Notes: generated by a model not told the origin, from the letters alone. A stretch of 38,614 nucleotides of DNA from a virus (IMGVR_UViG_2554235189_000017:1-38614); one strand, 5' to 3'; positions 3,092 through 32,946 are shown, counted from the stretch's first letter. A program made the numbers and translations.

Positions 3092-3106
3092 TTACCTTTC
3101 AGGTAA
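3092..3106. promoter_or_regulatory. Operator-like palindrome TTACCtttcaGGTAA in the divergent tailspike / tum-like promoter region
   Basis: Perfect TTACC-N5-GGTAA, one of about 12 copies of this motif in the window. Confidence 0.5.
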
Positions 3107-3143
3107 TTTGCAAAACGTGCTGGATAGCAAACAAATTATTTGA

Positions 3144-3163
3144 TACTGTATATTTATACAGTT
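3144..3163 (+). promoter_or_regulatory. LexA (SOS) box TACTGTATATTTATACAGTT upstream of the Tum-like gene
   Basis: Perfect CTGT-N8-ACAG with AT-rich spacer, about 20 nt upstream of the ATG at 3183. Confidence 0.75.
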
Positions 3164-3182
3164 ATTGCATGGAGAAGATAAG

Positions 3183-3440
3183 ATGCAGCGGTATCACTAT
3201 CCACTGGAAGACGGATTTACCGAAAGGATTCACACGCCGGGAGGCGTCAGGTCACTGGTGGAGGGATCGCACTTGATGAAATTACTCCGGGATCTCGATA
3301 AGGATGGATTTAATGTCGATGGCCCACTTGCCGAACTGACTGCACTGATTAACTACGTCACCAGCTCACAGATGACTATGCAGGATCTGCAAACACATCT
3401 CGACTATTGTGCCGAACAATTACGAAAACAAACCAGATAA
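3183..3440 (+). CDS. Small SOS-regulated antirepressor-like protein (Tum-like), 85 aa
   Basis: GGAG RBS 8 nt upstream; LexA box immediately upstream; sequence LMKLLRDLDKDGFNVDGPLAELT...DLQTH aligns with the C-terminus of the downstream Bro-N antirepressor (LMNLLNQLQEDGHDVSGAAAELT...DIQTH). Confidence 0.6.
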   Translation: MQRYHYPLEDGFTERIHTPGGVRSLVEGSHLMKLLRDLDKDGFNVDGPLAELTALINYVTSSQMTMQDLQTHLDYCAEQLRKQTR

Positions 3441-3454
3441 GATTTGAAATCACC

Positions 3455-3508
3455 AAGAGGAGTGCTTATATTTACCTTTGCGGTAAATTTACATCGCACT
3501 CCTCTTGT
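3455..3508. repeat. 12-bp inverted repeat (CAAGAGGAGTGC / GCACTCCTCTTG) enclosing an operator-like TTACCtttgcGGTAA (3472-3486)
   Basis: Read directly; a second hairpin CGGGCACTGG/CCAGTGCCGG follows at about 3520-3544. Confidence 0.6.
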
Positions 3509-3577
3509 GCCATAGTAATCGGGCACTGGCAAAATCCAGTGCCGGGATTGGCGTCCCGAGTTACTAAGTGGCGCATA

Positions 3578-3600
3578 CCACGCCAGACGTGGTTTTTTTA
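3578..3600 (+). terminator. Putative rho-independent terminator (CCACG-loop-CGTGG + T7)
   Basis: Short GC stem followed by TTTTTTT. Confidence 0.45.
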
Positions 3601-3755
3601 TGCGTTAAGCACAGCCATATCCGAATTATGGTGGGCTGGGCAGGGGTCCGAAAGGACGCCGGTACCACTTAGGCCGGTACGCCAACCTTGTCCAGTTCAC
3701 CACCAGTAATTGGCGTTGCGGTGGTGATTAAAATCACTAAGTGGAGATAACCACC

Positions 3756-4466
3756 ATGGCTAATGCTCAAACTGCCATCTTCAAATTTGAATCTGTTAAC
3801 CCTATCCGTTCCATCATTATCGATGGCCAACCATGGTTTGTAGCCCAAGACGTTTGTAGTGCGCTGCGTATCCAAAACGTCACCCAATCACTTGAAAAAC
3901 TGGATGATGATGAAAGGTCTATGTTCAACATAGGGCATGAACATCGTGCAATTTTTGATAGCCGAGTAAAAGAGATCAACATCATCTCCGAGTCAGGCCT
4001 CTACACACTGATCCTCCGCTGCCGCGATGCGGTGACACCAGGCACTATCCCCTACCGCTTTCGTAAATGGGTTACAGGTGAGGTTCTTCCTCAGATCCGC
4101 CGCACCGGAAGTTACATTAAAAACTCGCTCCCGCAGGAAGAACGCATAAAGATGGTTGCCGACCAGGTAGCCAACGCCACAGCATCAGCAGTGATGCAGG
4201 CAATGAAGATAGAGAACAAAACCTACAGTGCCCCACTGAAGCCCGGCTACCGTAGCCTGATTCATTCGCCGTCTGGTGTTCTCGGCCTGACTGAGAACTC
4301 ACTGCTGATGAATCTGCTGAACCAGTTACAGGAAGACGGGCATGATGTATCGGGCGCAGCGGCGGAGCTGACCACCATGTTCTGCTACATCGTCGGTGTG
4401 AGCAAATGCCTGCGTGATATCCAGACGCACGCGGAGTACATCAACGACAAGGCAGGGTTCTTCTGA
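3756..4466 (+). CDS. Phage antirepressor, Bro-N/AntA-like N-terminal domain with antirepressor C-terminal domain
   Basis: GGAGA RBS then ATG 3756; N-terminus AIFKFESVNPIRSIIIDGQPWFVAQDVCSAL is Bro-N-like. Confidence 0.75.
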   Translation: MANAQTAIFKFESVNPIRSIIIDGQPWFVAQDVCSALRIQNVTQSLEKLDDDERSMFNIGHEHRAIFDSRVKEINIISESGLYTLILRCRDAVTPGTIPYRFRKWVTGEVLPQIRRTGSYIKNSLPQEERIKMVADQVANATASAVMQAMKIENKTYSAPLKPGYRSLIHSPSGVLGLTENSLLMNLLNQLQEDGHDVSGAAAELTTMFCYIVGVSKCLRDIQTHAEYINDKAGFF

Positions 4467-4532
4467 CATGACGGCGGCACAGGGATGTGCCTTTAAATAA
4501 TTCTGTACAGATTGCAGGTGAATAGCGTACTA

Positions 4533-4547
4533 TTACCCCAAAGGTAA
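4533..4547. promoter_or_regulatory. Operator-like palindrome TTACCccaaaGGTAA upstream of the AT-rich two-gene operon
   Basis: Perfect TTACC-N5-GGTAA. Confidence 0.45.
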
Positions 4548-4664
4548 GAAAGTTGATTTGTAACATTTTAGTTTGTAGTTACCGTGATGGTTTTGCTGCA
4601 GAAAGTTAACTAGTCAAAATCACACCGTATGTAAGTCACGTCTGTTCCCGTATGGGAGGATGAT

Positions 4665-4883
4665 ATGTTTAAATTTGATATGCAACTCAACCAAAACTAT
4701 GCCTCTTTTTACCATCCAGAAACTGGTAAAGCTGTTTTCGTTGACTCTTTCGATAATGAAGAATTTGATATCAGAATTGGGACCCTACGCCAAAGTAAGC
4801 ATGTTGCTACTGTACGTGCATCCAATGATGATGAATTAAATCAAAAAATAAGTGAGGCGACCTCCCGTTATCTATGTCTATAA
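4665..4883 (+). CDS. Hypothetical protein (72 aa), first gene of an AT-rich two-gene operon
   Basis: GGGAGG RBS then ATG; ends 10 nt inside the next ORF (translational coupling); AT-rich versus flanks. Confidence 0.55.
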   Translation: MFKFDMQLNQNYASFYHPETGKAVFVDSFDNEEFDIRIGTLRQSKHVATVRASNDDELNQKISEATSRYLCL

Positions 4884-5251
4884 CAGAACAACAACTCATT
4901 GATCTTGAGGATGAGATTAACGAGATCTTGCAAGAAGATGCGGCAAGAATTCACTTTTCATTTCATGCAGCATATGAACGCCTGAACGACGAGAGGAACA
5001 AACCGCCAATTACTCTTGCTGAGCTTGAAGATGTGTTTAAATCGTTTATATCTGCACATCTGCAGACTGTTTTGGATTTTGCCGAAGGTACAACTTTCAC
5101 CATAAAGTGCAACAAAAGCGCCCTTCATTTTCCTTGCGCCATTGTACACGAAAGAGAGTTTGGGAAAACGTGGATTATCCAAAACGTCATTACAGCCATG
5201 AGGAAAGTGGGATTCAAGTCTAAAGATTCTATTATCCTCGAAGTTAATTAA
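4874..5251 (+). CDS. Hypothetical protein (125 aa), second gene of the AT-rich two-gene operon
   Basis: Overlaps upstream ORF; acidic helical N-terminus; followed directly by a terminator. Confidence 0.55.
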   Translation: MSITEQQLIDLEDEINEILQEDAARIHFSFHAAYERLNDERNKPPITLAELEDVFKSFISAHLQTVLDFAEGTTFTIKCNKSALHFPCAIVHEREFGKTWIIQNVITAMRKVGFKSKDSIILEVN

Positions 5252-5273
5252 GCCCGCGCCGCGGGCTTTTTTG
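5251..5273 (+). terminator. Rho-independent terminator (AGCCCGCGCCGCGGGCT + T6)
   Basis: GC-rich hairpin plus TTTTTT immediately after the stop codon. Confidence 0.7.
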
Positions 5274-5344
5274 TGGACGAAACAAAAGTCAGTGCTACAC
5301 TCATTGACGCCACATTGAGGTGGCTTATAGATGGAAATTTCACA

Positions 5345-5506
5345 ATGAAAAAAGCATTTGCTGCACTGTTCGTTTTGTTGTCTCTGGTAGCTTCAACTCA
5401 GGCCTTTGCTGGTCGTTGTCAGCACGACAGCGATACTGCCGCTGACGGATCCCGCTGCGGTGGGCGTTCTGCGGATTCCCGCCCGGGCGGCGGTGGCATT
5501 CGTTAA
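5345..5506 (+). CDS. Small secreted peptide: Sec signal peptide plus ~31-aa Gly/Arg-rich two-Cys mature peptide
   Basis: MKKAFAALFVLLSLVASTQAFA has classic n/h/c regions with an AxA cleavage site; no lipobox. Confidence 0.45.
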   Translation: MKKAFAALFVLLSLVASTQAFAGRCQHDSDTAADGSRCGGRSADSRPGGGGIR

Positions 5507-5512
5507 AAACAA

Positions 5513-5528
5513 GGCCGCGAAAGCGGCC
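5513..5528. terminator. Hairpin GGCCGC-GAAA-GCGGCC between convergent genes (possible bidirectional terminator)
   Basis: Perfect 6-bp stem with GAAA loop; T-rich run on the minus-strand side. Confidence 0.4.
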
Positions 5529-5529
5529 T

Positions 5530-5541
5530 GTGACATGTCAC
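5530..5541. repeat. 12-bp perfect palindrome GTGACATGTCAC (copy 1 of 3)
   Basis: Exact 12-mer also at 23012-23023 and 25277-25288, each within 0-5 nt of a stop codon. Confidence 0.8.
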
Positions 5542-5543
5542 GT

Positions 5544-5834
5544 TCATTTTCTGAATGATAGCCGTTCGAAAAATGATGACATTCCACCGCAGACAATAGC
5601 AAAGATGATCCCACCAAAGAAGAGAAGGCCAGCCTGCCACCACTCCCACCGCCATACATCCACAGCACCAACCATACCAACAATCGCTCCAACAAATGGA
5701 ATATAGCTCACGATGAAAGCAATGGGGGCTGCAATTATCCAGTGCAATCCCCACCATGATTCAAGCCCAGCCATAATTGCTGCCAACTGAAAAAGACCAA
5801 CGACGATATAAACAATGAATCCTATAGCTTGCAT
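5544..5834 (-). CDS. Small multi-pass membrane protein (96 aa); holin-like or lysogenic-conversion candidate
   Basis: AGGTGA RBS; about three hydrophobic segments; last gene of the minus-strand virion operon. Confidence 0.6.
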   Translation of the reverse strand: MQAIGFIVYIVVGLFQLAAIMAGLESWWGLHWIIAAPIAFIVSYIPFVGAIVGMVGAVDVWRWEWWQAGLLFFGGIIFAIVCGGMSSFFERLSFRK

Positions 5835-5846
5835 GTAGTCACCTAT

Positions 5847-6020
5847 TTACCCAGTAAAAATCAGAGGCCTCCCCTCAATAAGGCTTGCAACAAGAACTAT
5901 TCCCTGCACAACAAAGATGAACCAGCAAATAGCTTGAGTCTGAGGGTTAAGAAAATATTTGTAGCGGTCAATAAATAACAACCCACCAGAAATTATCACA
6001 CTCAAAATAATTAAAAACAC
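5847..6020 (-). CDS. Possible small membrane protein (~57 aa) with non-ATG start
   Basis: Open frame between the stop of the 824-aa gene and the 96-aa gene; hydrophobic; start codon (GTG/TTG) uncertain. Confidence 0.25.
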   Translation of the reverse strand: MFLIILSVIISGGLLFIDRYKYFLNPQTQAICWFIFVVQGIVLVASLIEGRPLIFTG

Positions 6021-6029
6021 AACACTTCC

Positions 6030-8504: not shown

Positions 8505-8509
8505 TTAAT

Positions 8510-19108: not shown

Positions 19109-19116
19109 TTCCTCTC

Positions 19117-19812: not shown

Positions 19813-19814
19813 GA

Positions 19815-20111
19815 TCACTCCTGTTCACTGGCCTCTTTGGCCATCTTCAAATACTGTTCAGGGCAATGCGCCATAACGCGCTGAAACAGTTCCAGCGCCA
19901 GATTGCGTTGCCCCTCATTAAATGCCATTGCCATAGCGTCCATCGGTGAGATAGCGGAAAACACACGGCCTTTCTCCAGCACCGACCAGACAACGCGACG
20001 CCCCTGTTCACTGCTCATGACAAAGCGAATGTCATCAATTTCACGCTGCGCCATGTCACGTTGCTTACGGGCGTTTTCTTCTTTCAGTTGATCGTCTTCG
20101 TAATCTGTCAT
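19815..20111 (-). CDS. Small head-assembly-associated protein (98 aa)
   Basis: Overlaps the portal stop (ATGA); charged helical protein. Confidence 0.45.
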   Translation of the reverse strand: MTDYEDDQLKEENARKQRDMAQREIDDIRFVMSSEQGRRVVWSVLEKGRVFSAISPMDAMAMAFNEGQRNLALELFQRVMAHCPEQYLKMAKEASEQE

Positions 20112-21787
20112 TGTGATTGCCCACCCTGACCACTAACTGCATTCGCCATAGCTGACAAAACACTCGGATCCGAAGTTTTAGCTTCGCTTAGCGTCTTGGC
20201 ACCCTGTGCCGCCGCCATCCCCATCGCCATCATTTGTTGCTGCTGTTGCTGCTGTGCCCGTTGCTGGCGAGCCTGCTCAACCTGTTCCTGCGGAACAATG
20301 ACGGTTGGAGACACTCCGGACATATCAGCGAATGCATCGATCGCCTGATCAACGTTGAGTTTGTCGAGAGCTTCTGGTTTCGCTTGCGCAAGTTGACCAA
20401 TGAAGTTAACCGTGGACGCCAGACTGGACAGGCCGATAGACTTCTGCGCCTGAGCCATGACGGAAATGTATTCGACCTTCAGTGGCATGCCTTCCATCGC
20501 GTCAGGCGGTGGCGGCAGCATGTTTTTGCGCACCATCATCGAGAAAGAGCGGTCAATGAGAGGATTAAGACATTCGTCGTTCAGACGCTCCAGAACCGGC
20601 CCCAACATCAGAAGTTTTTCTTCTTTCATTTCGATCACCGCTTCAACAGGCATCGAGCGGGTATTGATGTTCTGCAACATCATGAACAGATCGACAAAGT
20701 AGGCGCTGTTAATGATTTGACGAGTGTCCTGAATGTCTGCCACCAAATCTGCTGTACTGGGGTTAACCAGATAAGCAGGCCTGAAGCCATCCTGACCAGT
20801 AATCTGATCGATATACGTGATGTCGCCAGGAAGAAGGGAGGCGCGCTGATTCTTGAGGGAAGTCGGAGCAACCATCGGCGGATTGGTGGCTTTATCAATC
20901 AACTGCGACTTGCGCTTCTGGAGAAGCTGCAATGCCTTAACAGGTCCAAGCGCCAGCATACCCGGGCATGATGATCCATAAACATCTTCGCCATTAACTT
21001 CCCAGCGCGGAGCCATAATTGGAAACTCATCGAATCCGGACTCACGCAACAACTTGTCGTTATCGCCACCAACCTCGTAATAAACCGATTTGAATGGCTT
21101 GTTCTTGCTATCCAGCTTCGATGTATCGCGGTCAATGTTCGGGTAAACCGAATGCATCACTTCGATCCACTTCTCGTAGGTGCCGCTTTCCCACATGCTT
21201 TTTACGGATTCGCTGACGTTATTTAGCCCGAACTCCTGAACAAGCTGACGAACAGTCATAGAGAACTTGCGAAAACAGGTGTCAACACTGCCACGAGGTG
21301 AGTTAGCCAGGTAGTAACTGCCTATCGGGAATGGCATTGTGCGAATGATGTCCTCGTCATCCTCCAGCACTGCCATTGCACCAGTGCTGTATGTGCCGAG
21401 GCTTCCGTATAACTGCGGCAGCGACTGATAGAGATTCGACTTATTGAACATATCGTTCATGCGGTTCTGCACCGCCTCAAGCCACAACTTAACAGGGCCA
21501 TAATCCATCATTTCAGGATCTGGCGTAGCCAGGCGAAACCACGGACGCGCGGGGCTTGTGATGCCTGACATCATGCCGCTGGCGAGAGTGCGCGCCGCCA
21601 TAGTCCCGGTCGAATCAATAATGCGTGTATTGCGTCGATCGTTACGGTTGACCTCAGAAGTCAGAAAGCGGGAACCACGCGGGTTGATGTAATCACTCAA
21701 CTCGCGCCAGTGCGGCTCGAACGACTGACGCTCGCTTTCAAGTTGTGCGAACTGTTTGTTCAATCGCTCTTTAGTTGTTTCCGCCAT
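20108..21787 (-). CDS. Portal protein (head-to-tail connector, podovirus type)
   Basis: 559 aa immediately downstream of the terminase region. Confidence 0.75.
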   Translation of the reverse strand: MAETTKERLNKQFAQLESERQSFEPHWRELSDYINPRGSRFLTSEVNRNDRRNTRIIDSTGTMAARTLASGMMSGITSPARPWFRLATPDPEMMDYGPVKLWLEAVQNRMNDMFNKSNLYQSLPQLYGSLGTYSTGAMAVLEDDEDIIRTMPFPIGSYYLANSPRGSVDTCFRKFSMTVRQLVQEFGLNNVSESVKSMWESGTYEKWIEVMHSVYPNIDRDTSKLDSKNKPFKSVYYEVGGDNDKLLRESGFDEFPIMAPRWEVNGEDVYGSSCPGMLALGPVKALQLLQKRKSQLIDKATNPPMVAPTSLKNQRASLLPGDITYIDQITGQDGFRPAYLVNPSTADLVADIQDTRQIINSAYFVDLFMMLQNINTRSMPVEAVIEMKEEKLLMLGPVLERLNDECLNPLIDRSFSMMVRKNMLPPPPDAMEGMPLKVEYISVMAQAQKSIGLSSLASTVNFIGQLAQAKPEALDKLNVDQAIDAFADMSGVSPTVIVPQEQVEQARQQRAQQQQQQQMMAMGMAAAQGAKTLSEAKTSDPSVLSAMANAVSGQGGQSQ

Positions 21788-21801
21788 TTCAATGACTCCG
21801 G

Positions 21802-22008
21802 TTACTGACCAAGCAGCGTTTTACCGCTGGTATTAGCGGTTGATGTGTCACCCTGAGAACCGGTAAGCAGCGTAGAACTACGACCAGCAGCAGCGCGACG
21901 GCGACGTGTTTCTTCGTCGCGGGCATCAACAACGGCGGCATCCTGCTCCTGTGGTGCTGCCTGAACTTCTGGTGTTGCAGGCACTGATGGTGAGCTACCC
22001 ATGCACAT
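21802..22008 (-). CDS. Possible small protein upstream of portal (68 aa, low complexity)
   Basis: Ends 14 nt before the portal ATG with GGAG between; could be non-coding. Confidence 0.25.
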   Translation of the reverse strand: MCMGSSPSVPATPEVQAAPQEQDAAVVDARDEETRRRRAAAGRSSTLLTGSQGDTSTANTSGKTLLGQ

Positions 22009-22098
22009 ATCAATGACTCCGTACGCAATTAAATTATTACCAATTTAACCACATATGATTTACTTATCGTAGGTAGTTGACATTTAACGCATAAATTA

Positions 22099-22113
22099 TT
22101 ACCTTTAAGGTAA
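22099..22113. promoter_or_regulatory. Operator-like perfect palindrome TTACCTTTAAGGTAA next to a TTGACA hexamer (22072-22077)
   Basis: 15-bp perfect palindrome, part of the dispersed motif family. Confidence 0.5.
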
Positions 22114-22435
22114 GTAAAGGGTTCATTCCGGTTATTAACCTGACTGGCTTGTCGTTAAATTGAACAGGTGGAGTGAGCTTTTATTTTGAGCAGTACGGCG
22201 TATGGCACATGCGCCGATAGCGGTATAGATACGTTTAATGGGCACCCTCCCTTGCTCGGGCAAACGAACCAGGTAGCCGGAATGTGCAAGTCGAGCGGTT
22301 TTATTCCGCGCACGGGGATTCACCATCCCGGCGATTCGGTGTGACGCCTCGGAAGAGACGAGGGTACAACGATGAGAGCATTTATGGAGCCGCGACAAAG
22401 TGTGGTGCCTTAACAGGCTAAGTGCTCTCAGCGTT

Positions 22436-22512
22436 GTGGCATTAGCTCAGTTGGACAGAGCAACCGCCTTCTAAGCGGTTGGTCGCAGGTTCGAATCCTG
22501 CATGCCACGCCA
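22436..22512 (+). tRNA. tRNA-Arg (anticodon UCU), phage-encoded
   Basis: Hand-folded cloverleaf: acceptor GTGGCAT/ATGCCAC, D-arm GCTC...GAGC, anticodon loop CTTCTAA, T-arm GCAGG-TTCGAAT-CCTGC, encoded CCA. Confidence 0.85.
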
Positions 22513-22556
22513 GAATCACGCCTAAGGACCGTGATGCCAGAAGTTCCAGGTGCTTG

Positions 22557-22598
22557 GCGGTGATGGTTTCCCTTGAAGGACTATCACCGCCCTTTTTA
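22557..22598 (+). terminator. Rho-independent terminator downstream of tRNA
   Basis: GGCGGTGAT...ATCACCGCC stem then CTTTTTA. Confidence 0.6.
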
Positions 22599-22674
22599 CA
22601 GCAGGACGCCATTGCGATGACTTCATGCTGTAAACCAGTACAGCCACGGAAGGCATAACTCATTGCTTCCAGTT

Positions 22675-22698
22675 CGCCCGGTTCGCCGGGCATTTTTT
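22675..22698 (+). terminator. Rho-independent terminator/attenuator 12 nt upstream of the DUF2829-like gene
   Basis: GCCCGG-TTCG-CCGGGC hairpin followed by ATTTTTTT, then AAGGTGAG RBS and ATG 22711. Confidence 0.7.
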
Positions 22699-22710
22699 TA
22701 AGGTGAGATT

Positions 22711-23007
22711 ATGAGCGAAACATCAACAGTATCTTTCTCCACTGCTTTGTCATCACTCAAAGATGGTAAGCGCATTGCACGTGCCGGATGGAATGGCAAA
22801 GGCATGTATCTGCAACTGGTTAAGCCACCGCAATCGGCCACTCCGAACGATTGGCGATTTGACGTTACATGCGGTGACGAGTATACATTTGTACCTGGCG
22901 TTAAACTTCTACCGTGGATTGGGATGAAAACTGCTGACGGTTGCTTTGTACCGTGGCTGGCATCTCAAACCGATATGCTATCTGATGACTGGATTGTAAT
23001 TCAATAA
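22711..23007 (+). CDS. DUF2829-like small protein (98 aa), candidate Tad2-type anti-Thoeris sponge
   Basis: ARAGWNGKGMYLQL near N-terminus and WLASQTDMLSDDW near C-terminus match my recollection of DUF2829; opposite strand to flanking late genes. Confidence 0.5.
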   Translation: MSETSTVSFSTALSSLKDGKRIARAGWNGKGMYLQLVKPPQSATPNDWRFDVTCGDEYTFVPGVKLLPWIGMKTADGCFVPWLASQTDMLSDDWIVIQ

Positions 23008-23011
23008 CACC

Positions 23012-23023
23012 GTGACATGTCAC
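23012..23023. repeat. 12-bp perfect palindrome GTGACATGTCAC (copy 2 of 3)
   Basis: Exact copy 5 nt after the stop of the DUF2829-like gene. Confidence 0.8.
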
Positions 23024-23026
23024 AAA

Positions 23027-23055
23027 CAGCCAGCCTATGAGCTGGCTTTGTTTTA
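23027..23055 (+). terminator. Rho-independent terminator after the DUF2829-like gene
   Basis: CAGCCAGC-loop-GCTGGCT stem followed by TTGTTTTA. Confidence 0.6.
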
Positions 23056-23097
23056 TCCTCACCAGAGGATATCAACGACATTATCCCCACCAGCGGA

Positions 23098-24573
23098 TTA
23101 AGCATAGGGATCGTAATCTGTAATGGCCTTGCCTTGCTGGTTCTGCTGCCCGGGAATTCGCAGACGCTTAGACACAGGGAACGCAAACGTCAGCAGTAGC
23201 GCATCGCCTTTACCCGGCGAACGCCCAAGCCGCTCCTTGATATCTTCCTTCGGTTCGATAACGATTTTACCGTCCACGCGAACTTTGTACTCTGCCGCCG
23301 ACAGATCGTCCGCTGTTTCCTGGTCATCCAGCATCCCGCCCAACCTCAGCCATGTCTTGCATGAGTTGAACATCTCCCCGCGCTTGTTGAGCATCTGAGG
23401 GTCAGTTGACGCACCACCGAACGGAACAAGTTGCCATGTGCGCCCCCAGCCGTCACCGATTGACTTCAGACCGGTTCCGTAACCGAAGTCGATGAACACC
23501 GCGTCAGCCTGATACTGGTCTTCAAAGTCAGCGATACGCTTCGCCATAATCAGATCGTCGGTAGTCTTGTTGCCAGTCCACAGCACCTTACTGTGTAGCC
23601 CCTGCCGCAGGTATATCACCGCGTCATCAACGCCTGAATATGCCGGGTCAACACCGATTATCACCGGAGCATGCGCCACCTGCGCAGCGGTTACCACCCG
23701 TTTCATTGCCTCATCAGTAAGACCGGTAGGGATAAACTGCAATTCAGATGCATCAGGGAATATGCCGCGCACACGGATTTTAACGAAGTCGCTGTCTTCC
23801 CCGTAGTCATCAACCCATTTCTGCAACTGCTGTTTGTTAGTGCCTTCCACCGTTCGGCTGTCAATCTGCGCAGTTTTCCAGCGGTGTTTATATTTGCGGA
23901 AACATTCGCGGAAACGTCCGGTATTACGCGTCGGGTTTCCGAACGCCACCCAGATAATCTCAGTGTCTTCGTCCGTTAGTGCACCCTCGGCAACTTCCCA
24001 CACCAGATCCGCAATGTTCGACGCTTCATCGAATACCACGATGATGCGTTTGCGCTCGTTGTGTAGTCCGGCGAATGCCTCAGTGTTGTGCTCAGACCAG
24101 GGGATTGCGTCAGCTCGCCACCGCTTGTCGTGTCCAGGATCATTGCTGTACATCGCGGTAGCGGTACAGGTAAACCAGTCTTTCGTGATAGCAAGGTTCG
24201 ACCACTTGATAATTTCCGGCCAGGTCTTCGTTCGTAGCTGGTTGTCGGTGTTGGCGGTCACCACGACCTTACAATCCTCGCAAGTGGACATGCCCCAGTT
24301 GATCAGCATTGAGATGAATGCGGATTTACCAATACCGTGACCCGAAGCGCGTGCCAGCATAAGCGGCTGATAGCGAGTCTCTGGATTCTGCAGGTGATCA
24401 CGTATCTCTCGGAACGCATCAGCCTGCCACTGACGTGGACCGGTGGCATGTGCCAGTTCAGTCCCATCTTCCCCCCACGGGAACGCATAGAGGGCATAGC
24501 CAAGCGGATCGTGAGTGAACCCTGCAATATCCTCGATCAACTGCTCTTCAGGAGATAACGCTGCATCTGTCAC
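23098..24573 (-). CDS. terL: Terminase large subunit
   Basis: 491 aa with ATPase-like N-terminal region (GHGIGKS) and nuclease-like C-terminal region; ATGA overlap with terS. Confidence 0.8.
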   Translation of the reverse strand: MTDAALSPEEQLIEDIAGFTHDPLGYALYAFPWGEDGTELAHATGPRQWQADAFREIRDHLQNPETRYQPLMLARASGHGIGKSAFISMLINWGMSTCEDCKVVVTANTDNQLRTKTWPEIIKWSNLAITKDWFTCTATAMYSNDPGHDKRWRADAIPWSEHNTEAFAGLHNERKRIIVVFDEASNIADLVWEVAEGALTDEDTEIIWVAFGNPTRNTGRFRECFRKYKHRWKTAQIDSRTVEGTNKQQLQKWVDDYGEDSDFVKIRVRGIFPDASELQFIPTGLTDEAMKRVVTAAQVAHAPVIIGVDPAYSGVDDAVIYLRQGLHSKVLWTGNKTTDDLIMAKRIADFEDQYQADAVFIDFGYGTGLKSIGDGWGRTWQLVPFGGASTDPQMLNKRGEMFNSCKTWLRLGGMLDDQETADDLSAAEYKVRVDGKIVIEPKEDIKERLGRSPGKGDALLLTFAFPVSKRLRIPGQQNQQGKAITDYDPYA

Positions 24574-25163
24574 TGATTGCCATCCTGACGTTCTTTCAGT
24601 CTCTTCCTGGCTGCCGCTATGCGATCAGCAATTGTCACATTCACATTAACATCCAGGCGTTCTTTGAATGCATTGACATCGACGTGCTTACCAATCAGCT
24701 CAAGGTTCTTCACCTTGTCAGGCCATTTAATTTTTTTGAGGATTGTCTCTATCGAATCCTCGTTCATGTTCATGATGGTCGATGACAGATCAAAGCCGCT
24801 AAGCGTAGTGCGCCAGATTTTCGGCCACTCGCGGATTGGCTTAAGGCTCCCATCATCGTTGAGGATATCAATCACGTCCATCTGGTCGATCTCCACCAGG
24901 CGCATGAGAACGTAATCAGCACTGACACGCATTCGTTTGTTGCGCTCTTCCATCAGCTCGGCAATCCGTTTTTGAATGCGTTCATCGCGCATCATGACAC
25001 TGGCTTTAACTGCCGCTGTATTTGGGGAGAATCCTGCGTTAATCGCTGCCTGAGTCTGGTTTTCAGGCGTTTTGATGTATGACTGGCAATAAGCCTCCTG
25101 CATTGCTGTTAGTGGCTTAAATTGCGTTGATTTACGTTTATAGGTTTTAGGTTCAGCAGGCAT
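24570..25163 (-). CDS. terS: Terminase small subunit
   Basis: Start placed at MPAEPKTYKRK (ATG 25163); the upstream 27 codons of the track ORF look like translated intergenic sequence. Confidence 0.65.
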   Translation of the reverse strand: MPAEPKTYKRKSTQFKPLTAMQEAYCQSYIKTPENQTQAAINAGFSPNTAAVKASVMMRDERIQKRIAELMEERNKRMRVSADYVLMRLVEIDQMDVIDILNDDGSLKPIREWPKIWRTTLSGFDLSSTIMNMNEDSIETILKKIKWPDKVKNLELIGKHVDVNAFKERLDVNVNVTIADRIAAARKRLKERQDGNQ

Positions 25164-25276
25164 CGTAACCACCGTGGTAATAGTTACCGTTGTGGTAATA
25201 GTACCATGCAAAATAAAGCCGCCATAGTTGGCGGCAGTATTCAAAACACATCAAATTCATCATGCATAATCTACTC

Positions 25277-25288
25277 GTGACATGTCAC
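25277..25288. repeat. 12-bp perfect palindrome GTGACATGTCAC (copy 3 of 3)
   Basis: Overlaps the stop codon of the 25285..25626 gene. Confidence 0.8.
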
Positions 25289-25626
25289 ACTATTAATTTC
25301 GTTTCATGCCAGCCTTTGGTCACCCAACATTGCGAGTCACCATTGCACGGGCATGAATTAACTGGAACTCTCTCGCCGCACTTACCGCAACGTTTTCTGC
25401 TGATCGATTTTATACGCCCGCGCACGCGTGCATCATCCTGGCGGATCAGCAGCGCGATGTACTCGGCCATTTCATAGGGATCGCGACCAGGGCGCCGGGC
25501 GGCGCAGTTCCGCGCCAGCATTTCCTGCTCCTGCTTATCCAGCACCAGTTCAATTTTGCGCTCACCGGCGGCGGACTGCCGAGCGCGCTGCGCGGCTTTG
25601 CGTTCTGCTGCTGATTTAGCCATCAA
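25285..25626 (-). CDS. Hypothetical basic protein with C-terminal Cys cluster (113 aa)
   Basis: ORF with Lys/Arg-rich N-terminus and CGKCG...CPC motif; function unknown. Confidence 0.5.
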   Translation of the reverse strand: MMAKSAAERKAAQRARQSAAGERKIELVLDKQEQEMLARNCAARRPGRDPYEMAEYIALLIRQDDARVRGRIKSISRKRCGKCGERVPVNSCPCNGDSQCWVTKGWHETKLIV

Positions 25627-25897
25627 TATTCACCTTTATCGCGAACACCTTTACCGGTTTATCGCCGAAGTGGGGATGTGTGATTGTCTTGATTTCATAT
25701 CCGTCATACGGGACGTCAATTCTGCGGCTGGAATCGTCGCGCTTCGGATATCCCTTTGTGATAATCAGGCGGTCATATTCCCGGAGCATAATTCGCTTAT
25801 TCCAGTAGTCATTACACAGGCGATACTCTTCCGTTTTCTCCCCGCGAATCATGGCATCGAAGTATTCACCTTTGACGGCAAGTTGAAGGTTAGCCAC
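25616..25897 (-). CDS. Hypothetical protein, possibly ASCH/DUF3850-like (93 aa)
   Basis: Small coupled ORF; domain assignment from memory only. Confidence 0.45.
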   Translation of the reverse strand: MANLQLAVKGEYFDAMIRGEKTEEYRLCNDYWNKRIMLREYDRLIITKGYPKRDDSSRRIDVPYDGYEIKTITHPHFGDKPVKVFAIKVNIDG

Positions 25898-27071
25898 GGT
25901 TAACCTCCTGTGGCGGCTCCGGTAGCGGCATCCAGTGGGTTACATTGCGGCTCTGCGTTTCGAAGAACTCCTCACCATTGCGGACGACATCAAAAAACTC
26001 TCCGTCCCGATATTGCGCATAAAGAACGAATGCGCCATCACATAAAATAATTACGTGCTGACCATCATTTGGCATTCGCTCACTACAGCTTATCCAACCA
26101 TCCGGAGTTACCGGAGAATTGCCATTTACCAAGTCAGCTCGAACATATAGCGTGTCATCATGGTGCTGATTGTGGCTGCACCACGTTAATTCGCTTAACT
26201 CGCCATCTTCTGGCCATACTCCAGCTGTTTGCAGCCAGATATGGGCTGGCGCATCCTGGCAAGGTGTATTAACTGGAAACTTGTAAGTTTGGCTTACAGG
26301 TTGGCTACCCTGAAGCATGGCAGCGTGGCAGGCATACTCAACGCCCTTAACTGCATCTGCGCAGTAGTTATAGCGATTGCATTCCACTAATTTCCGTTTG
26401 AGTTTTTCAATTGCCTGCGCGACATCAGCCTGTATTACAGGAACTGGCGGAACGGCTGTTTGCTCTCGAACGTCATTAGTCGCTATCGGTTCTGCTGCCA
26501 ACTGACTGGCATATTTGTTAATGGTAACGATAAGCTCTTGCTCAGCCTCATCCAGACAATCACCGATACCTCGCCTGTCACCGTCAAAATCATCGAAATC
26601 AGCACGAATCTTGGCAACCTTCTGGATTGCGGACAACACCTCACTAGGAATTACCGGATAGTTGGTTGACGAACTCTTGTTTTCCCGAAAGTTTCCGGAC
26701 TGAAGCATGGCGGCGCGGCAGGCGTTCCAGCCTCTCACCTCTGCAATAGCGGCAACAGCATCAACCGCGTACATGCTAAGAGGATTAGGCATTGGTTTTT
26801 CTTCCGGTACTACTGGAACGGGTGGAGCGGCGTAGACCTCAATAATTCCATTATCAATAGGCCATTCTCCATCCTTGAGGTAGTCACTTGTGCCGTCAAC
26901 TTGCTGTTCTGCAATGTGGAATGCACCTATTGGTTTTGCTTCCAGCGATGCCAGAGCAATTCGTGCCAGTTCTTCCGCTTCTTCTGCTGGCAGTACAACG
27001 TTGCTACCAGGTCCGTATGTTTCGCGCCACTGCTTGATTGTCAGCAGTCGCTCTTTGGTAATAGTGGTCAT
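25890..27071 (-). CDS. Hypothetical protein with internal duplication and C-terminal DUF551-like domain (393 aa)
   Basis: Repeated segments (NACRAAMLQSGN / YACHAAMLQGSQ) mirrored in DNA at about 26310 and 26700; C-terminal HWMPLPEPP. Confidence 0.55.
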   Translation of the reverse strand: MTTITKERLLTIKQWRETYGPGSNVVLPAEEAEELARIALASLEAKPIGAFHIAEQQVDGTSDYLKDGEWPIDNGIIEVYAAPPVPVVPEEKPMPNPLSMYAVDAVAAIAEVRGWNACRAAMLQSGNFRENKSSSTNYPVIPSEVLSAIQKVAKIRADFDDFDGDRRGIGDCLDEAEQELIVTINKYASQLAAEPIATNDVREQTAVPPVPVIQADVAQAIEKLKRKLVECNRYNYCADAVKGVEYACHAAMLQGSQPVSQTYKFPVNTPCQDAPAHIWLQTAGVWPEDGELSELTWCSHNQHHDDTLYVRADLVNGNSPVTPDGWISCSERMPNDGQHVIILCDGAFVLYAQYRDGEFFDVVRNGEEFFETQSRNVTHWMPLPEPPQEVNRG

Positions 27072-27081
27072 GTGTTACTCC

Positions 27082-27345: not shown

Positions 27346-27346
27346 A

Positions 27347-27565: not shown

Positions 27566-27566
27566 A

Positions 27567-27782
27567 TCACTCTCCTTTGTTGCTTCTCAAAATTTTATGC
27601 CCTGGCGCAAAAGCACGCGTTTTGTCGACGCTTATTCGCCACCCATCTTTACGTGCCTCTTTTGCACAGCCAGCCCATGACGTACCGATATACTCACCGA
27701 AGTCTGGCACTGGATATACACCTTCCGTACACTGGCGGCAGTCACAATAGAGATGCATGGTGTAACTTGCGGCAATAGCCAT
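27567..27782 (-). CDS. Hypothetical Cys-containing protein (71 aa)
   Basis: Start ATG preceded by the conserved junction sequence. Confidence 0.45.
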   Translation of the reverse strand: MAIAASYTMHLYCDCRQCTEGVYPVPDFGEYIGTSWAGCAKEARKDGWRISVDKTRAFAPGHKILRSNKGE

Positions 27783-27783
27783 A

Positions 27784-28856: not shown

Positions 28857-29353
28857 TGGTTGCCTCCTTTGCGAAGCTGGGCAGCAAAGTCACGGATAGT
28901 GCCATCAAGGTCTGGACACAACAGATTGTCAGCAAACATCTCAACCCCCTGCGCCCGTACTTCAGCCAGAAAAGCATCGGTAGCTGGAGTTTCGCTGTGG
29001 TGTAGGGCATCGTTGATAATCATTGCAGCAACACCAGCCTGCCCTGCATCCGTGACCGACACATGCTCAAGAGTTACGGCCATTGCGTGTTTCAGCCCCG
29101 CATTCTCCGCCGCCAGCGCCGAAAACTTCTCGTGTGCCAACTTAACAGCCGCATCAGCCTGCTTAATTGACTCAGTCGCTCTCTGGTGGTCTTCGGCCAG
29201 CGCATTAGCACGCACCAGTTGCACTTCCGGTTGCGTTGCCAAATCGCTGATCAGCTTTGCCACACTGCGCATATCAACGGCACCACATTCTGCTTTCAGT
29301 TCCGAAGCCATCTCATGCCCGGCGGAAACTAACCCTTTGATATTACTTTCCAT
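28853..29353 (-). CDS. Hypothetical protein (166 aa)
   Basis: Coupled ORF in nin-like region. Confidence 0.5.
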   Translation of the reverse strand: MESNIKGLVSAGHEMASELKAECGAVDMRSVAKLISDLATQPEVQLVRANALAEDHQRATESIKQADAAVKLAHEKFSALAAENAGLKHAMAVTLEHVSVTDAGQAGVAAMIINDALHHSETPATDAFLAEVRAQGVEMFADNLLCPDLDGTIRDFAAQLRKGGNQ

Positions 29354-29414
29354 CTTTACCCTCGCTTATCCACATAACTTATTGATTACATTGATAACTA
29401 AAAAGATCGTCGAT

Positions 29415-29762
29415 TCAGAACTCTTCGATGTTCCAGCCACCACCTGCTTTCTTTGGTTTAACCGTTACCCCGATGATTCGGAACGGATACTGATCTGCGG
29501 CGACTTTGGTTTTCACCCTGGCGTCGTCGGTCCAGAATCCCCCTTTCACTTCGTGCAGTTCCATCTCTCCGGTGGCGAGCATCACAGCGAAATCGGGCGT
29601 ATAAAACGTGTTATCAGCTAACCGCAGCTTGATACCCTCGAATCGATACCAGGCGATTTCCCCTGCACGTTTACGCTGCTCAAGGTGCTGGCAATACGCA
29701 GATTCTGTTTTGTTCATCTGGCCTGTTTTGAGTCGACCAAGAGCCTGTATCTGTTTTCTCAT
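29415..29762 (-). CDS. Hypothetical protein, possibly DUF1064-type nuclease-like (115 aa)
   Basis: First gene after P; family assignment from memory only. Confidence 0.45.
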   Translation of the reverse strand: MRKQIQALGRLKTGQMNKTESAYCQHLEQRKRAGEIAWYRFEGIKLRLADNTFYTPDFAVMLATGEMELHEVKGGFWTDDARVKTKVAADQYPFRIIGVTVKPKKAGGGWNIEEF

Positions 29763-29765
29763 GAT

Positions 29766-29842
29766 TTACCTCTGAGGTAATTAAAAACCACATAAGACAC
29801 GAAATCAATAGAGTTTAGAATATTTTGTTACCCATCAGGTAA
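29766..29842. promoter_or_regulatory. Two operator-like palindromes (TTACCTCTGAGGTAA 29766-29780; TTACCcatcaGGTAA 29828-29842) in the P / nin intergenic region
   Basis: Both perfect TTACC-N5-GGTAA; the first lies 4 nt upstream of the start codon. Confidence 0.5.
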
Positions 29843-29879
29843 TTATCAAGGCGTAAAAAAATGCGCTATCGCGCTGGTA

Positions 29880-30680
29880 TTACTTGATAAATCCTGCCGC
29901 CTTTCCCCGCCTGTATTCCTCCATCAGCCACTGCGCCGGTGTTATTCCCCCAAGGGTGGCGGCGTTAGGCATGCACCCGAAACTTCGCCCTGGTGGATGG
30001 TAAACGTCTCTCCCTGTGTCCGGAGGTGTACTCATGGGCTCTGACTTTGCCTGTATGCTGATCACCGGATCGGGTATCTGCTGTCCGGAAGCCACCTTTT
30101 TCGCCCAATCATCGAGCAGCCTGCGCGCGTGTTTCTCAACCTCAATCTCGCTAAGCTGGCGCTGATACATTGCACGGCGGGTATCACATACGACCCAGTA
30201 CATAACCGGATGCCGCCACGGGAATCTTTCGGGACCACCAGGATATAAACTTTTTTCCTTGCTGTACCGGTGAAACTCCGCCATCACATCGTCAATGGTG
30301 ACACCAAGAACCATCTTGCTGTCTTTACACCACTTGATGAATTGCCCTGGCGACGGCCAGAACGGAGACTCACTGGCGCGGGCGTGGCGCATACCAGCAG
30401 AAACCTGTTCACGGGTTCGGATCCCCCCTTCGGCAAACGCAGCAATCCACTGCTGTTTTGCAGCAACTTCCTGCTCTGGCGTCTTCAGGTTGGTTACCAC
30501 TGCCGCCGGAAACAGTTGTTTCAGCTGTTTGAAAAGGGCATCAACAAGCCTCTCTGCTGACATGTTCACCACGTTGTCATTGTTGGTGTACTGATGCTCA
30601 TAACCTGACATGCGAGAAAGGGCTTCTCCGTCACGGTTTTGTATCGCGGTAAAAACGTTGTTCACAAGAAATCCTCCCAT
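29880..30680 (-). CDS. Replication protein P-like (helicase loader)
   Basis: GMRHARASESPFWPSPGQFIKWC closely parallels the lambda P motif as I recall it. Confidence 0.7.
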   Translation of the reverse strand: MGGFLVNNVFTAIQNRDGEALSRMSGYEHQYTNNDNVVNMSAERLVDALFKQLKQLFPAAVVTNLKTPEQEVAAKQQWIAAFAEGGIRTREQVSAGMRHARASESPFWPSPGQFIKWCKDSKMVLGVTIDDVMAEFHRYSKEKSLYPGGPERFPWRHPVMYWVVCDTRRAMYQRQLSEIEVEKHARRLLDDWAKKVASGQQIPDPVISIQAKSEPMSTPPDTGRDVYHPPGRSFGCMPNAATLGGITPAQWLMEEYRRGKAAGFIK

Positions 30681-31477
30681 GCTTCAGGGCTGTTCCAGTG
30701 CGGAACGTTGTTATCAGGTAATGTTGATTGCTTCTGTCTGCTAATCTGCAGCCGCCTTGCCAGCTTCTGCTCCCACTGTGCCTGATGGTATGCCTTACCC
30801 TCAGCCATCCAGTAAATTCTGAACTCTGCAAGTTCCTGTGCCGTTGGCAGACTGTCCAGGTAGATCCCCTGCAATGAGCTTTTCCGAAGAAAGTCATCTG
30901 ATGGCTGCCATTGTTCATGCATGACAAATTTGCCTAATTGCCCTGGCCCACCAAGAGGAACAAAGTTATTCATCACGGCGTTGTTTGCGCCGGGGTCATG
31001 ATGCACAGAATCCCCGTTTTTTGTCCTGCTCTCCCTCTCTTGGTTAAATGACTGGTTATATGACTGGTTCTGGATCCCGTTTTTGGGATCATTCAACATC
31101 CCGTTTTTGGGATCATTCAACATCCCGTTTTTGGGTATATTCCCGTTTTCGGTAACATTACCGTTTTCGGGTTCATTACCCCCTTCCCGGTTGCCTTTAA
31201 TGTTCCCGTTTTTGGTTATATTAAGAGAGAAAACCCGCACTCTTTTCGTCGCTCCCTTTCTCTCTCCGGTATCTGAAATAAGCCCCATTTTCATGAGCGA
31301 TATAAGCCCGGCCTGCACGGTTTTTTTATTCAGGCAAGTGTCTTTAACGAGGCGTTCTATGCTGGGGTAGCAGAGGTTATATTCATCGGCTCTGTCAGCC
31401 ATCGAGAGCAGTATGAGCTTTAATGATGAGCTGCCTGGATCTGTCTCCCAAGCCCAATCTGTTGCATGTCTGCTCAT
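30662..31477 (-). CDS. Replication initiator O-like protein containing the origin iterons
   Basis: N-terminal HTH-like domain, Asn/Gly-rich repeat linker (NGNIPKNGMLNDPKNGMLNDPKNG), C-terminal region preceding P. Confidence 0.7.
   Translation of the reverse strand: MSRHATDWAWETDPGSSSLKLILLSMADRADEYNLCYPSIERLVKDTCLNKKTVQAGLISLMKMGLISDTGERKGATKRVRVFSLNITKNGNIKGNREGGNEPENGNVTENGNIPKNGMLNDPKNGMLNDPKNGIQNQSYNQSFNQERESRTKNGDSVHHDPGANNAVMNNFVPLGGPGQLGKFVMHEQWQPSDDFLRKSSLQGIYLDSLPTAQELAEFRIYWMAEGKAYHQAQWEQKLARRLQISRQKQSTLPDNNVPHWNSPEAWEDFL
31074..31217. repeat. Origin-like iteron array inside the O-like gene
   Basis: Two exact tandem 24-mers ATCCCGTTTTTGGGATCATTCAAC (31074-31097, 31098-31121) plus 3-4 degenerate CCCGTTTT(C/T)GG copies. 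Confidence 0.7.
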
Positions 31478-31492
31478 GATTAATCTCCGCTA

Positions 31493-31693
31493 TCAGCTTG
31501 AGTGTTGTGGGGAGGAATTAATCATGATCTGCTTAATCTCTGCCCTGATGCGACGGTTTGATTCCATGGTGCACTCAACACAGTGTCCGTTGTAAACCCA
31601 GCGTTCACTGTCATGTCCGTGCTTACATTGTTTTCCGGTGTAATAGCGTTTAAGTCCGCGCTTTGCGGCATCAATACGTGTAATGATTTCCAT
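31493..31693 (-). CDS. Small zinc-ribbon-like protein (66 aa) between Cro-like gene and O
   Basis: CKHGH...CVEC cysteine pairs; start taken at MEIITRI. Confidence 0.4.
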   Translation of the reverse strand: MEIITRIDAAKRGLKRYYTGKQCKHGHDSERWVYNGHCVECTMESNRRIRAEIKQIMINSSPQHSS

Positions 31694-31773
31694 GGTAAGC
31701 CCTGTTATTAGTATTGGGATTACGGTTATTTTGTGCTGACACAAAAAAAAGATCAACCATATTTGGTTTTTTA

Positions 31774-31788
31774 TTACCTTTGAGGTGC
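31774..31788. promoter_or_regulatory. Operator-like site TTACCtttgaGGTGC upstream of the zinc-ribbon gene
   Basis: Same half-site pattern as the central OR site. Confidence 0.4.
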
Positions 31789-31843
31789 GAATAGATATGA
31801 AAAGACCGCCGGATGGCGGTCTACAGAGGTTTGTGGCTGGATA

Positions 31844-32074
31844 TCATGAGTAGAAGAAGTATGCCAGTTCTGCTTTTGAGCGCAGCCATTGTCTTGTTTT
31901 ACAGGCTTTAAAAAGCCCATTCATCAATACCTTACCTGGCATTTTGCGCTTACCTGTTAAGTGAGTCTGGATATAGTGACTCGTCGTTCCGGCTTCCTGT
32001 GCGAAGGCTTCACGCTCATCCGGAGTAAGTGCAAGCCAGTGCTTTTTGAAATCGAAATGTCCGTTATCGCTCAT
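31844..32074 (-). CDS. Cro-like HTH regulator (76 aa)
   Basis: First gene leftward of the operator cluster, divergent from the repressor gene. Confidence 0.55.
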   Translation of the reverse strand: MSDNGHFDFKKHWLALTPDEREAFAQEAGTTSHYIQTHLTGKRKMPGKVLMNGLFKACKTRQWLRSKAELAYFFYS

Positions 32075-32110
32075 AGCTATTGCCTGATATTTATTTCAGA
32101 TAATAAATAT

Positions 32111-32173
32111 TCACCCATAAGGTAACAAAAATCAAGGATAGTTACCTATGAGGTGCATTTACCTGTTGGGTAA
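32111..32173. promoter_or_regulatory. OR-like region: three operator sites (tCACC-N5-GGTAA 32111-32125; TTACC-N5-GGTGC 32142-32156; TTACC-N5-GGTAA 32159-32173)
   Basis: Three spaced copies of the palindrome between divergent Cro-like and CI-like genes. Confidence 0.65.
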
Positions 32174-32228
32174 TATTGCTTTAAATTGAATCATCTACTG
32201 ATTCATATATGAGGCGATTTTCCAGAAA

Positions 32229-32813
32229 ATGAAAAGTATCCAGGACGTCCGCAGGCAAAATCTCAACGACTTGATCGACCGTGAATTCAATGGTGTTCAG
32301 ACGCGGATGGCAGAAAAACTTGGAACTCAGGCAAATCTGGTAAACCGCTGGGCTCTTGGCAAGAAGGTTATCGGCGACCAGGTTGCGCGAAAAATTGAAG
32401 CTGCCGCCAATAAACCCCGTAACTGGCTTGATATCGATCGCTCGCTTTCTCAGGAAGGTTTTCAGCCTGTCGGCCCAAGCGACATTGGTCAGCTGGCGGC
32501 TCACAACCTGGAACGCTGGATGAGCGAAAGCCGCGACCTTTCAACACAGGGAAAACTTCACCGCGCATCCGGCGTCGCCCAGGTGACAATCAGCCGCCTG
32601 TTAAACAATGAGGTCAGCGTTTCCATTTCCACCCTGGAGAATGTTGCATCCGCATTCGGGCGTCACGGATATGAACTACTGATTCACCCGCACGACCCTG
32701 CGACTATCAACTATGACCGCTCGCGCTACGCATTGTTACCCGAAACCGAGAAAGCAAAGATCGAAAGTTACATTGAATTTGTCATCAACCAGAACGAAAA
32801 AAACAAACAATAA
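32229..32813 (+). CDS. CI-like prophage repressor with two HTH regions and no recognisable autocleavage domain
   Basis: 194 aa; HTH-like segments near residues 20-60 and 110-150; no peptidase S24 motifs seen. Confidence 0.6.
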   Translation: MKSIQDVRRQNLNDLIDREFNGVQTRMAEKLGTQANLVNRWALGKKVIGDQVARKIEAAANKPRNWLDIDRSLSQEGFQPVGPSDIGQLAAHNLERWMSESRDLSTQGKLHRASGVAQVTISRLLNNEVSVSISTLENVASAFGRHGYELLIHPHDPATINYDRSRYALLPETEKAKIESYIEFVINQNEKNKQ

Positions 32814-32832
32814 AATCATATTTTTCAGTAAA

Positions 32833-32858
32833 TAAGCCGCCTTCTGGCGGCTTTTTTA
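32833..32858 (+). terminator. Rho-independent terminator after the repressor gene
   Basis: AAGCCGCC-TTCT-GGCGGCTT hairpin followed by TTTTTT. Confidence 0.75.
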
Positions 32859-32869
32859 TTGCCTGTTCG

Positions 32870-32946
32870 ATTACCTAATGGGTAATTTTTTTAACTCATA
32901 TCTATTGACATCAAACCAGATACGCATAATTATTACCTCAACGGTA
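32870..32946. promoter_or_regulatory. OL/PL-like region: operator sites TTACCtaatgGGTAA (32870-32884) and TTACCtcaacGGTAA (32932-32946) flanking a TTGACA -35 hexamer (32904-32909)
   Basis: Operators bracket a promoter reading into the early-left operon. Confidence 0.6.

Follow-up and report, generated by a model that had tools for sequence, protein, structure and literature searches.

TTACC-N5-GGTAA palindromes as predicted operators of a Rep repressor in a phiV10-like prophage

The GenBank record of phage epsilon15 (AY150271.2) carries seven features labelled 'protein_bind, repressor, lysogeny' (12–27, 2931–2947, 19895–19911, 32479–32494, 32554–32570, 32616–32632 and 35906–35922). Each of them coincides exactly with a perfect copy of the palindrome TTACC-N5-GGTAA. 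Since these features match the motif, a dispersed network of repressor sites has already been recognised in epsilon15, at least as a prediction, with seven of its 11 perfect copies being marked and none of them in OR, the operator region between the divergent repressor and cro-like genes. The same palindrome is studied here in a stretch of viral DNA of 38,614 nucleotides (IMGVR_UViG_2554235189_000017:1-38614, further called the window), a phiV10-like prophage fragment of the genus Uetakevirus (epsilon15 group) with 97–98% identity to the Escherichia phages phiV10, PAS61 and phiv142-3. Epsilon15 and the window share the motif, in the form ATTACC-N5-GGTAAT, as well as the genus, the gene order and homologous sites at the terS leader, upstream of gp3, at tailspike/gp19, at the early-left operator region (OL) and at nin. 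The window adds sites at modules which epsilon15 lacks, namely a Bro-N/isrK/C4 module and a cargo module at 4.5 kb.

For Salmonella phage SPC32H, the structural work on the repressor Rep (PDB 5D50, 5D4Z) comprises, as summarised in PMC9638917 and PMC9986798, the tetramer structure and its disassembly driven by the antirepressor Ant. According to these summaries, Rep is a tetramer on DNA in which the DNA-binding pairs are drawn from different dimers, while its tetramerisation domain is of the DNA-looping type, with two pairs of DNA-binding domains ~100 Å apart. One of these papers describes the repression mechanism as having 'not been extensively characterized'. The window likewise has a full-length Rep homologue, an Ant and a LexA box, and no autocleavage domain. 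Based on the Rep homology, the palindrome positions and the presence of ant with its LexA box beside the tailspike gene, the window is predicted to be a member of the epsilon15/SPC32H Rep regulon.

The closest functional likeness is found in the C1 repressor of phage P1, which has many scattered operators, each at a separate promoter, one of them driving an antisense-RNA-controlled antirepressor operon (immI c4-icd-ant). Dispersed operators and a C4-family RNA before a Bro-N gene are present in the window as well. However, the P1 operators are asymmetric 17-mers read by a protein unrelated to Rep, and P1 is a plasmid prophage. The stoperators of L5-type mycobacteriophages are asymmetric 13–14-mers, occurring by the dozens per genome, which follow the direction of transcription and exert their effect on elongation. 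They resemble the window's network in that one immunity repressor serves genome-wide sites, and a first-pass annotation of this DNA had drawn that parallel, but it does not hold, as the window sites are symmetric, few (10–14) and overlap promoters. As in lambda, a divergent repressor/cro pair has three operators in between, with more operators past the repressor gene, at the early-left promoter. Unlike in lambda, the window operators extend beyond the immunity region, Rep is without a LexA-like cleavage domain, OL has two sites, and the affinity order appears to be reversed.

We consider it probable (about 0.82) that the motif is the Rep operator, and that one tetrameric repressor would occlude some eight promoters until relieved by the LexA-controlled Ant. 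The features on which this reading is based are listed in Table 1.

Table 1. Predicted operators and associated features of the window
Position	Strand	Feature	Remarks
3092–3106		Perfect operator between tailspike and ant	14 nt upstream of candidate ant −35 TGGATA (3121–3126)
3143–3166	+	LexA box TACTGTATATTTATACAGT (3144–3162)	Near-consensus sequence match, over candidate ant −10
3183–3440	+	ant, small antirepressor	85 aa; 89% identity to SPC32H Ant, E 4e-57
3472–3486		Perfect operator	On last T of −10; predicted promoter TTGAAA (3444), 17 nt, TATATT (3472)
4533–4547		Perfect operator	On last T of TACTAT (4528–4533); candidate −35 TGTACA (4504–4509), 18 nt
4579–4593		Possible degenerate partner of 4533, weak	2 mismatches; 46 bp downstream of 4533
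22099–22113		Perfect operator, divergent gp3/cargo region	Overlaps −10 position TACCTT of predicted plus-strand promoter
25166–25180		Second terS-leader operator	1 mismatch; 18 bp from 25184; ends 2 nt before ATG 25163
25184–25198		terS-leader operator, perfect	First base on last T of extended −10
29766–29780		nin proximal operator, perfect	62 bp from 29828 partner; first base on last T of −10
29828–29842		nin upstream operator, perfect	Directly past terminator of P-like replication gene
31774–31788		Degenerate operator after cro terminator	2 mismatches; homologues with 1 mismatch in phiV10, Tyrion and BUCT711
31844–32074	−	Cro-like small HTH protein	First gene of early-right operon; phrog_35 'transcriptional repressor', E 5.6e-13
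32111–32125		OR1	1 mismatch; TCACC half-site conserved in six genomes
32142–32156		OR2, TTACCTATGAGGTGC	2 mismatches; 17 bp from OR3; position kept in six genomes
32159–32173		OR3, perfect	Right half overlaps invariant GGTAATAT, −10-like TAATAT (32171–32176), rep side
32229–32813	+	rep, CI-like repressor, presumed motif binder	194 aa; phmmer vs PDB 5D50
32871–32885		OL2, perfect operator	19 nt upstream of PL −35; 62 bp from OL1
32905–32933	+	Predicted PL-like promoter, TTGACA, 17 nt, AATTAT	CTATTGAC invariant in six genomes
32933–32947		OL1, perfect operator	First T is last T of −10; spans ~−7 to +8
HTH, helix-turn-helix.

Number, context and conservation of the palindrome

The window holds ten perfect copies of TTACC-N5-GGTAA. 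The first-pass annotation had listed nine, as the copy at 25184 was missed; two of its starts, 32870 and 32932, are really 32871 and 32933, and the others were correct. Its estimate of ~0.04 copies expected by chance was reproduced analytically (38.6 kb / 4^10), and 100 dinucleotide-preserving shuffles of the window yielded zero perfect copies. In the 100 kb of Escherichia coli K-12 that were scanned, the motif occurs perfectly only once, compared to ten times in the window. Both results speak against a palindrome that is a compositional artefact or belongs to a different binder, for example a host protein or the late regulator encoded at 25285–25626, as does the location of the densest clusters next to the repressor gene. 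Three copies (3092, 32871 and 29828) do lie at ~−57 to −62 relative to predicted starts, where activators typically bind. For a late activator, a better candidate site is a different palindrome, CCATATATGG, which is invariant and lies at the −35 region of the late promoters. An artefact or a binder other than the phage repressor is considered very improbable.

The three imperfect variants noted earlier were also recovered, with one mismatch at 32111 and two each at 31774 and 32142, the latter two having the half-site GGTGC in common. Additional degenerate copies were found at regulatory positions, at 25166 (one mismatch) and 4579 (two mismatches). A copy with one mismatch at 896 was discarded as probably due to chance, being located within the tailspike open reading frame (ORF). 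The window contains 24 copies with two mismatches, while ~10 matches with two mismatches or fewer are expected by chance. Therefore, counting every such copy as a site was rejected, and they were only considered at conserved positions.

All ten perfect sites are in non-coding DNA once two ORF calls are corrected, in agreement with the earlier observation that the sites are intergenic. The site at 25184 fell in an over-extended terS ORF, of which the true start, based on alignment with epsilon15, SPC32H and Tyrion, is the ATG at 25163. Another perfect site was contained in a spurious ORF (3407–3709) which overlaps two Rfam RNAs. Even with an ORF map made too generous on purpose (93% coding), non-coding DNA holds eight of the ten sites (binomial P = 2e-8). 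Inside the 16-kb structural operon of the window, zero perfect copies are present.

Next, six genomes were compared: the window, phiV10, epsilon15, SPC32H, Enterobacter phage Tyrion and Klebsiella phage BUCT711. Together they hold 55 perfect sites at homologous positions. Conserved positions are the terS leader (two sites 18 bp apart), the region upstream of gp3 (one site), the spacer between ant and tailspike (one site), the region downstream of ant in those phages which have an extra gene there (one site), OL (a pair), OR (three sites), the position after the cro terminator (a degenerate site), the nin region (a pair) and, outside the window, the regions upstream of the lysis cassette and of the integrase gene. 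SPC32H has ten perfect copies at positions matching those of the window. In the gp3 region, the DNA upstream of the operator cannot be aligned between the genomes and the operator is invariant. Based on the 55 sites, the extended consensus is a palindrome of 17–19 bp, w-A-TTACC-w-w-W-w-w-GGTAA-T-w, with A or T as the central base in 98% of the sites.

In all five relatives, a copy with one mismatch (TTACC-N5-GGTAT) is located ~45 bp upstream of the integrase gene, at 26870, 26882, 26960, 28568 and 12620 of genomes L001, L002, L083, L084 and L085, respectively. This suggests that int may be under Rep control as well. The window ends just short of this site, its right end being the integrase start codon. 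It aligns to phiV10 1–21479 and 26927–39104. As phiV10 21480–26926 is absent, the window is without the O-acetylase gene, the lysis cassette and attP. At the left end, an IS3-family element (1–540, with an ALIL frameshift pseudoknot at 136–252 on the minus strand) adjoins the tailspike stop codon, and the prophage may be interrupted or truncated at this element or at the missing phiV10 region.

The repressor, the antirepressor and the Cro-like protein

Rep of the window is a full-length homologue of SPC32H Rep, with residues 1–190 aligning to 2–197 of PDB 5D50 (phmmer, E 4e-42). Its N-terminal HTH domain is followed by an HTH_3-like dimerisation domain in the middle (HTH_3 at 106–147 in Pfam) and a C-terminal domain for tetramerisation and Ant binding. 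A LexA-like S24 peptidase domain was not found in a Pfam scan, which returned HTH families only. Identity to the Reps of SPC32H (~42%) and epsilon15 (42%) is limited. The N-terminal recognition helix NLVNRW is invariant in five Reps with an overall identity of only ~43%, which would explain why these phages share one operator. The repressor of phage ZX5 is identical to that of the window, and when it was over-expressed, the transcripts for holin and endolysin fell by over 99.9% (PMC9782041).

Ant of the window is far more conserved than its target, with 89% identity to SPC32H Ant compared to ~42% between the two Reps. Five of the six genomes keep the core of the LexA box, CTGT-N8-ACAG, intact; BUCT711 has one mismatch (ATGT).

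As both regulators of the lambda switch bind the same operators, the dispersed sites might instead be bound mainly by the Cro-like protein, or by Cro and Rep equally, and serve to turn down transcription in the lytic phase. The protein belongs to a 'transcriptional repressor' PHROG, its HTH is weakly homologous to the N-terminal domain of Rep, and the OR site nearest to rep, where Cro would act first, is the perfect one. However, the residues of its recognition helix (SHYIQTH) are unlike NLVNRW of Rep, and a lytic-phase protein closing the terS, cargo and nin promoters would be expected to hinder the phage's own growth. The ZX5 result, in which Rep over-expression alone silences the lysis-gene transcripts, also favours Rep (PMC9782041). 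A leading or equal role for Cro is thus considered unlikely.

Operators at predicted promoters

Promoters were predicted by consensus, and the offsets between operators and promoters were checked by script. For five perfect sites, the first base coincides with the last T of a predicted −10 hexamer, namely at PL (32933), nin (29766), isrK/C4/Bro-N (3472), terS (25184) and the cargo module (4533). Overall, at least seven of the ten perfect sites abut or overlap a predicted −10.

Between the divergent rep and cro-like genes, the three motif copies first noted there form a tripartite operator, OR, which is kept in all six genomes. OR1 covers the spacer and the edge of the −10 of a predicted cro-side promoter (TTGATT 32135–32130, 18 nt, AATATT 32111–32106). 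The two copies reported to bracket the early-left promoter do so, flanking TTGACA-17-AATTAT. A similar layout is seen at nin, where the predicted promoter is on the minus strand (TTGATT 29808–29803, 17 nt, TTTAAT 29785–29780), and the PL-like module between the two nin operators is conserved in the relatives. The early-left and nin control regions have the module operator, 16 nt, CTATTGA in common. Another nin promoter, TTGATA-16-CAAAAT with the operator in its spacer, was rejected as the main one, since its −35 is not kept in the relatives.

The terS-leader pair, which was missed at first, extends the network to the packaging operon. Its predicted extended −10, TG-G-TACTAT (25206–25198, minus strand), follows a terminator at 25235–25218. 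At the promoter overlapped by the operator at 22099, the −35 TTGACA (22077–22082) is invariant in the six genomes. This predicted promoter faces the genes for tRNA-Arg(UCU) (22436–22512, +) and a Tad2-like protein (22711–23007, +). At the ant promoter, the proximal position is taken by the LexA box, and the operator at 3092 lies upstream. Downstream of the predicted promoter at 3444–3472, an isrK-like RNA (3523–3599) and a C4-like antisense RNA (3624–3707) precede a Bro-N protein gene (3741–4466). Both RNAs are gathering-level Rfam matches on the plus strand, with 67 bits for the Hfq-binding small RNA isrK and 66 bits for C4. This looks like a second antirepressor module, P1 immI-like or Gifsy-1 IsrK-like, beside the LexA-controlled Ant.

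Some sites are located past terminators and right before ribosome-binding sites (25166 in the terS leader, 29766 at nin), and epsilon15, SPC32H and BUCT711 have a third OL site after a hairpin. Such positions would suit stoperator-like roadblocks halting the elongating RNA polymerase within transcription units. On the other hand, symmetric sites admit no orientation rule, nearly every site abuts a recognisable −10 or sits 62 bp from one that does, only 10–14 sites are present and the structural operon is free of them. Roadblocks are therefore regarded as quite improbable, and occlusion of promoters by Rep is preferred.

Several points weigh against this preference. Over whole regions, promoter-like matches are not more frequent than in shuffles. 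The perfect sites at 3092, 32871 and 29828 are off any core promoter, so that any role given to them is guesswork. The order at OR is opposite to that of lambda, in that the strongest site overlaps the −10 of the repressor's own promoter and the site facing cro is imperfect, for which the occlusion reading does not account. The repressor features of the epsilon15 record are annotations and probably predictions themselves. Finally, every Uetakevirus Rep (42–100% identity, tblastn of phage records) keeps both NLVNRW and the same motif, and since the relatives share one motif and one helix, a covariation test of repressor and operator is precluded. Pseudomonas PseuP_224 and Moraxella Mcat9 were considered for such a test; they have other helices and lack the motif, but are too remote and their operators are unclear.

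The sites at 32871 and 29828 are each exactly 62 bp upstream of their partner. This spacing recurs throughout the six genomes, with 63 bp in one case. Among 80 IMG/VR loci, all of which encode an identical repressor, it is seen for 149 of 153 close pairs. The layout of operator, 19 nt, −35, 17 nt, −10 and operator is identical at early-left and nin in the six genomes and the 80 metagenomic loci. It is possible, though doubtful, that these pairs are obligate micro-loops in which one Rep tetramer clamps both sites around the −35 and spacer, forming with a separate late code, CCATATATGG, the complete two-layer grammar of the genus. If true, the micro-loops would account from the DNA side, as has been lacking, for the 'trans' pairing of DNA-binding domains in the SPC32H Rep structure.

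The late code refers to an invariant CCATAT(A/G)TGG(TT) block, 7–9 nt before a −10-like hexamer, upstream of the tailspike gene and of gp3 (3054–3063 and 22047–22056, minus strand) and, in relatives, of the lysis cassette (24739–24748 of L001 and homologues). A conserved −35 was not found at these late promoters. Likewise, beside the operators no sigma-70 promoter for gp3 or tailspike was found, the CCATATRTGG block being there instead. The late promoters are likely activator-dependent and hence silent indirectly, and the block is a candidate site for a late activator, perhaps the 113-aa regulator at 25285–25626 (phrog_536). Neither the strict 62-bp module nor the late-promoter palindrome was found described in the literature consulted, which did not include the primary SPC32H and epsilon15 papers.

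Besides their position at promoters, the right halves of some operators serve as or adjoin a Shine-Dalgarno sequence, as in GAGGTAAATCATG (DUF1064 gene), GGTGGTTACGATG (terS) and the GAGGTAA half-site at 32948–32966 (first early-left gene). For the DUF1064 gene (ATG 29762), this is the GAGG of the operator at 29766. The tRNA-Arg(UCU) and Tad2-like genes, the latter matching a Thoeris anti-defence family (Pfam PF11195, E 1.4e-24), are flanked by terL and gp3 and run against the direction of the late genes. Past the operator at 4533, three small cargo ORFs (4665–5506, +) match unknown-function PHROGs only (14630, 14518 and 3117), apart from one which also matches a moron family of 'membrane associated protein'. 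Inside the replication-initiator gene (30662–31477), at least five copies of a tandem iteron-like repeat, CCCGTTTTTGGG, occur with spacers at ~31075–31200; these are likely the replication origin, as in lambda O.

Proposed silencing and induction of the prophage

In the proposed mechanism, Rep would recognise each half-site through the NLVNRW helix of one N-terminal HTH. In a lysogen, Rep would then occupy the core of essentially every constitutive phage promoter and block initiation. The stretch from ~−7 to +8 would be covered by the operator at the early-left, nin, isrK/C4/Bro-N, terS and 4.5-kb cargo promoters. The operator of the tRNA/Tad2 cargo promoter would overlap the −10, and the three OR sites would span the promoter on the cro side as well as the −10 on the rep side. 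Auxiliary operators would be placed at a fixed 62 bp upstream (early-left and nin) or, for ant, 14 nt before the −35. A single tetramer probably bridges the auxiliary and the proximal site, six helical turns apart, via its second pair of DNA-binding domains. The activator-type late promoters (gp3 and tailspike) would be off in the lysogen indirectly. The sequences show the motif with its enrichment and conservation, its location with respect to predicted promoters, and the homology of Rep and Ant; from these we infer the binding of Rep to the operators, the bridging and the promoter assigned to each site.

Since Rep is without a peptidase domain, induction would proceed without repressor cleavage. 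The SOS response would free the ant promoter of LexA, Ant would break the Rep tetramer, as reported for SPC32H, and all operons would fire together.

The first-pass annotation had suggested that one regulator may silence lysis, cargo and induction genes together. For the cI/cro, early-left, cargo, nin and antirepressor genes, this is supported by the Rep homology, the placement at core promoters, the conservation in five other genomes and the epsilon15 annotation, from which binding is deduced. The part on lysis does not apply to the window, which has no lysis genes; relatives carry a motif site before the lysis cassette.

The novelty of the network is low, as the sites were already annotated in epsilon15 and the repressor has been structurally characterised, and no new class of regulation is proposed. 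The analysis maps the sites of a phiV10-type E. coli prophage precisely and provides the operator geometry which the structural work on SPC32H Rep lacks. The sites could also be of use as a compact set of orthogonal, tightly repressed promoters. Furthermore, the map helps to predict which cargo would be expressed in the lytic phase only, i.e. the tRNA-Arg, the Tad2-like anti-defence gene and the morons of unknown function. It would also mean that a single antirepressor-sensitive tetrameric repressor can silence a whole podophage genome promoter by promoter.

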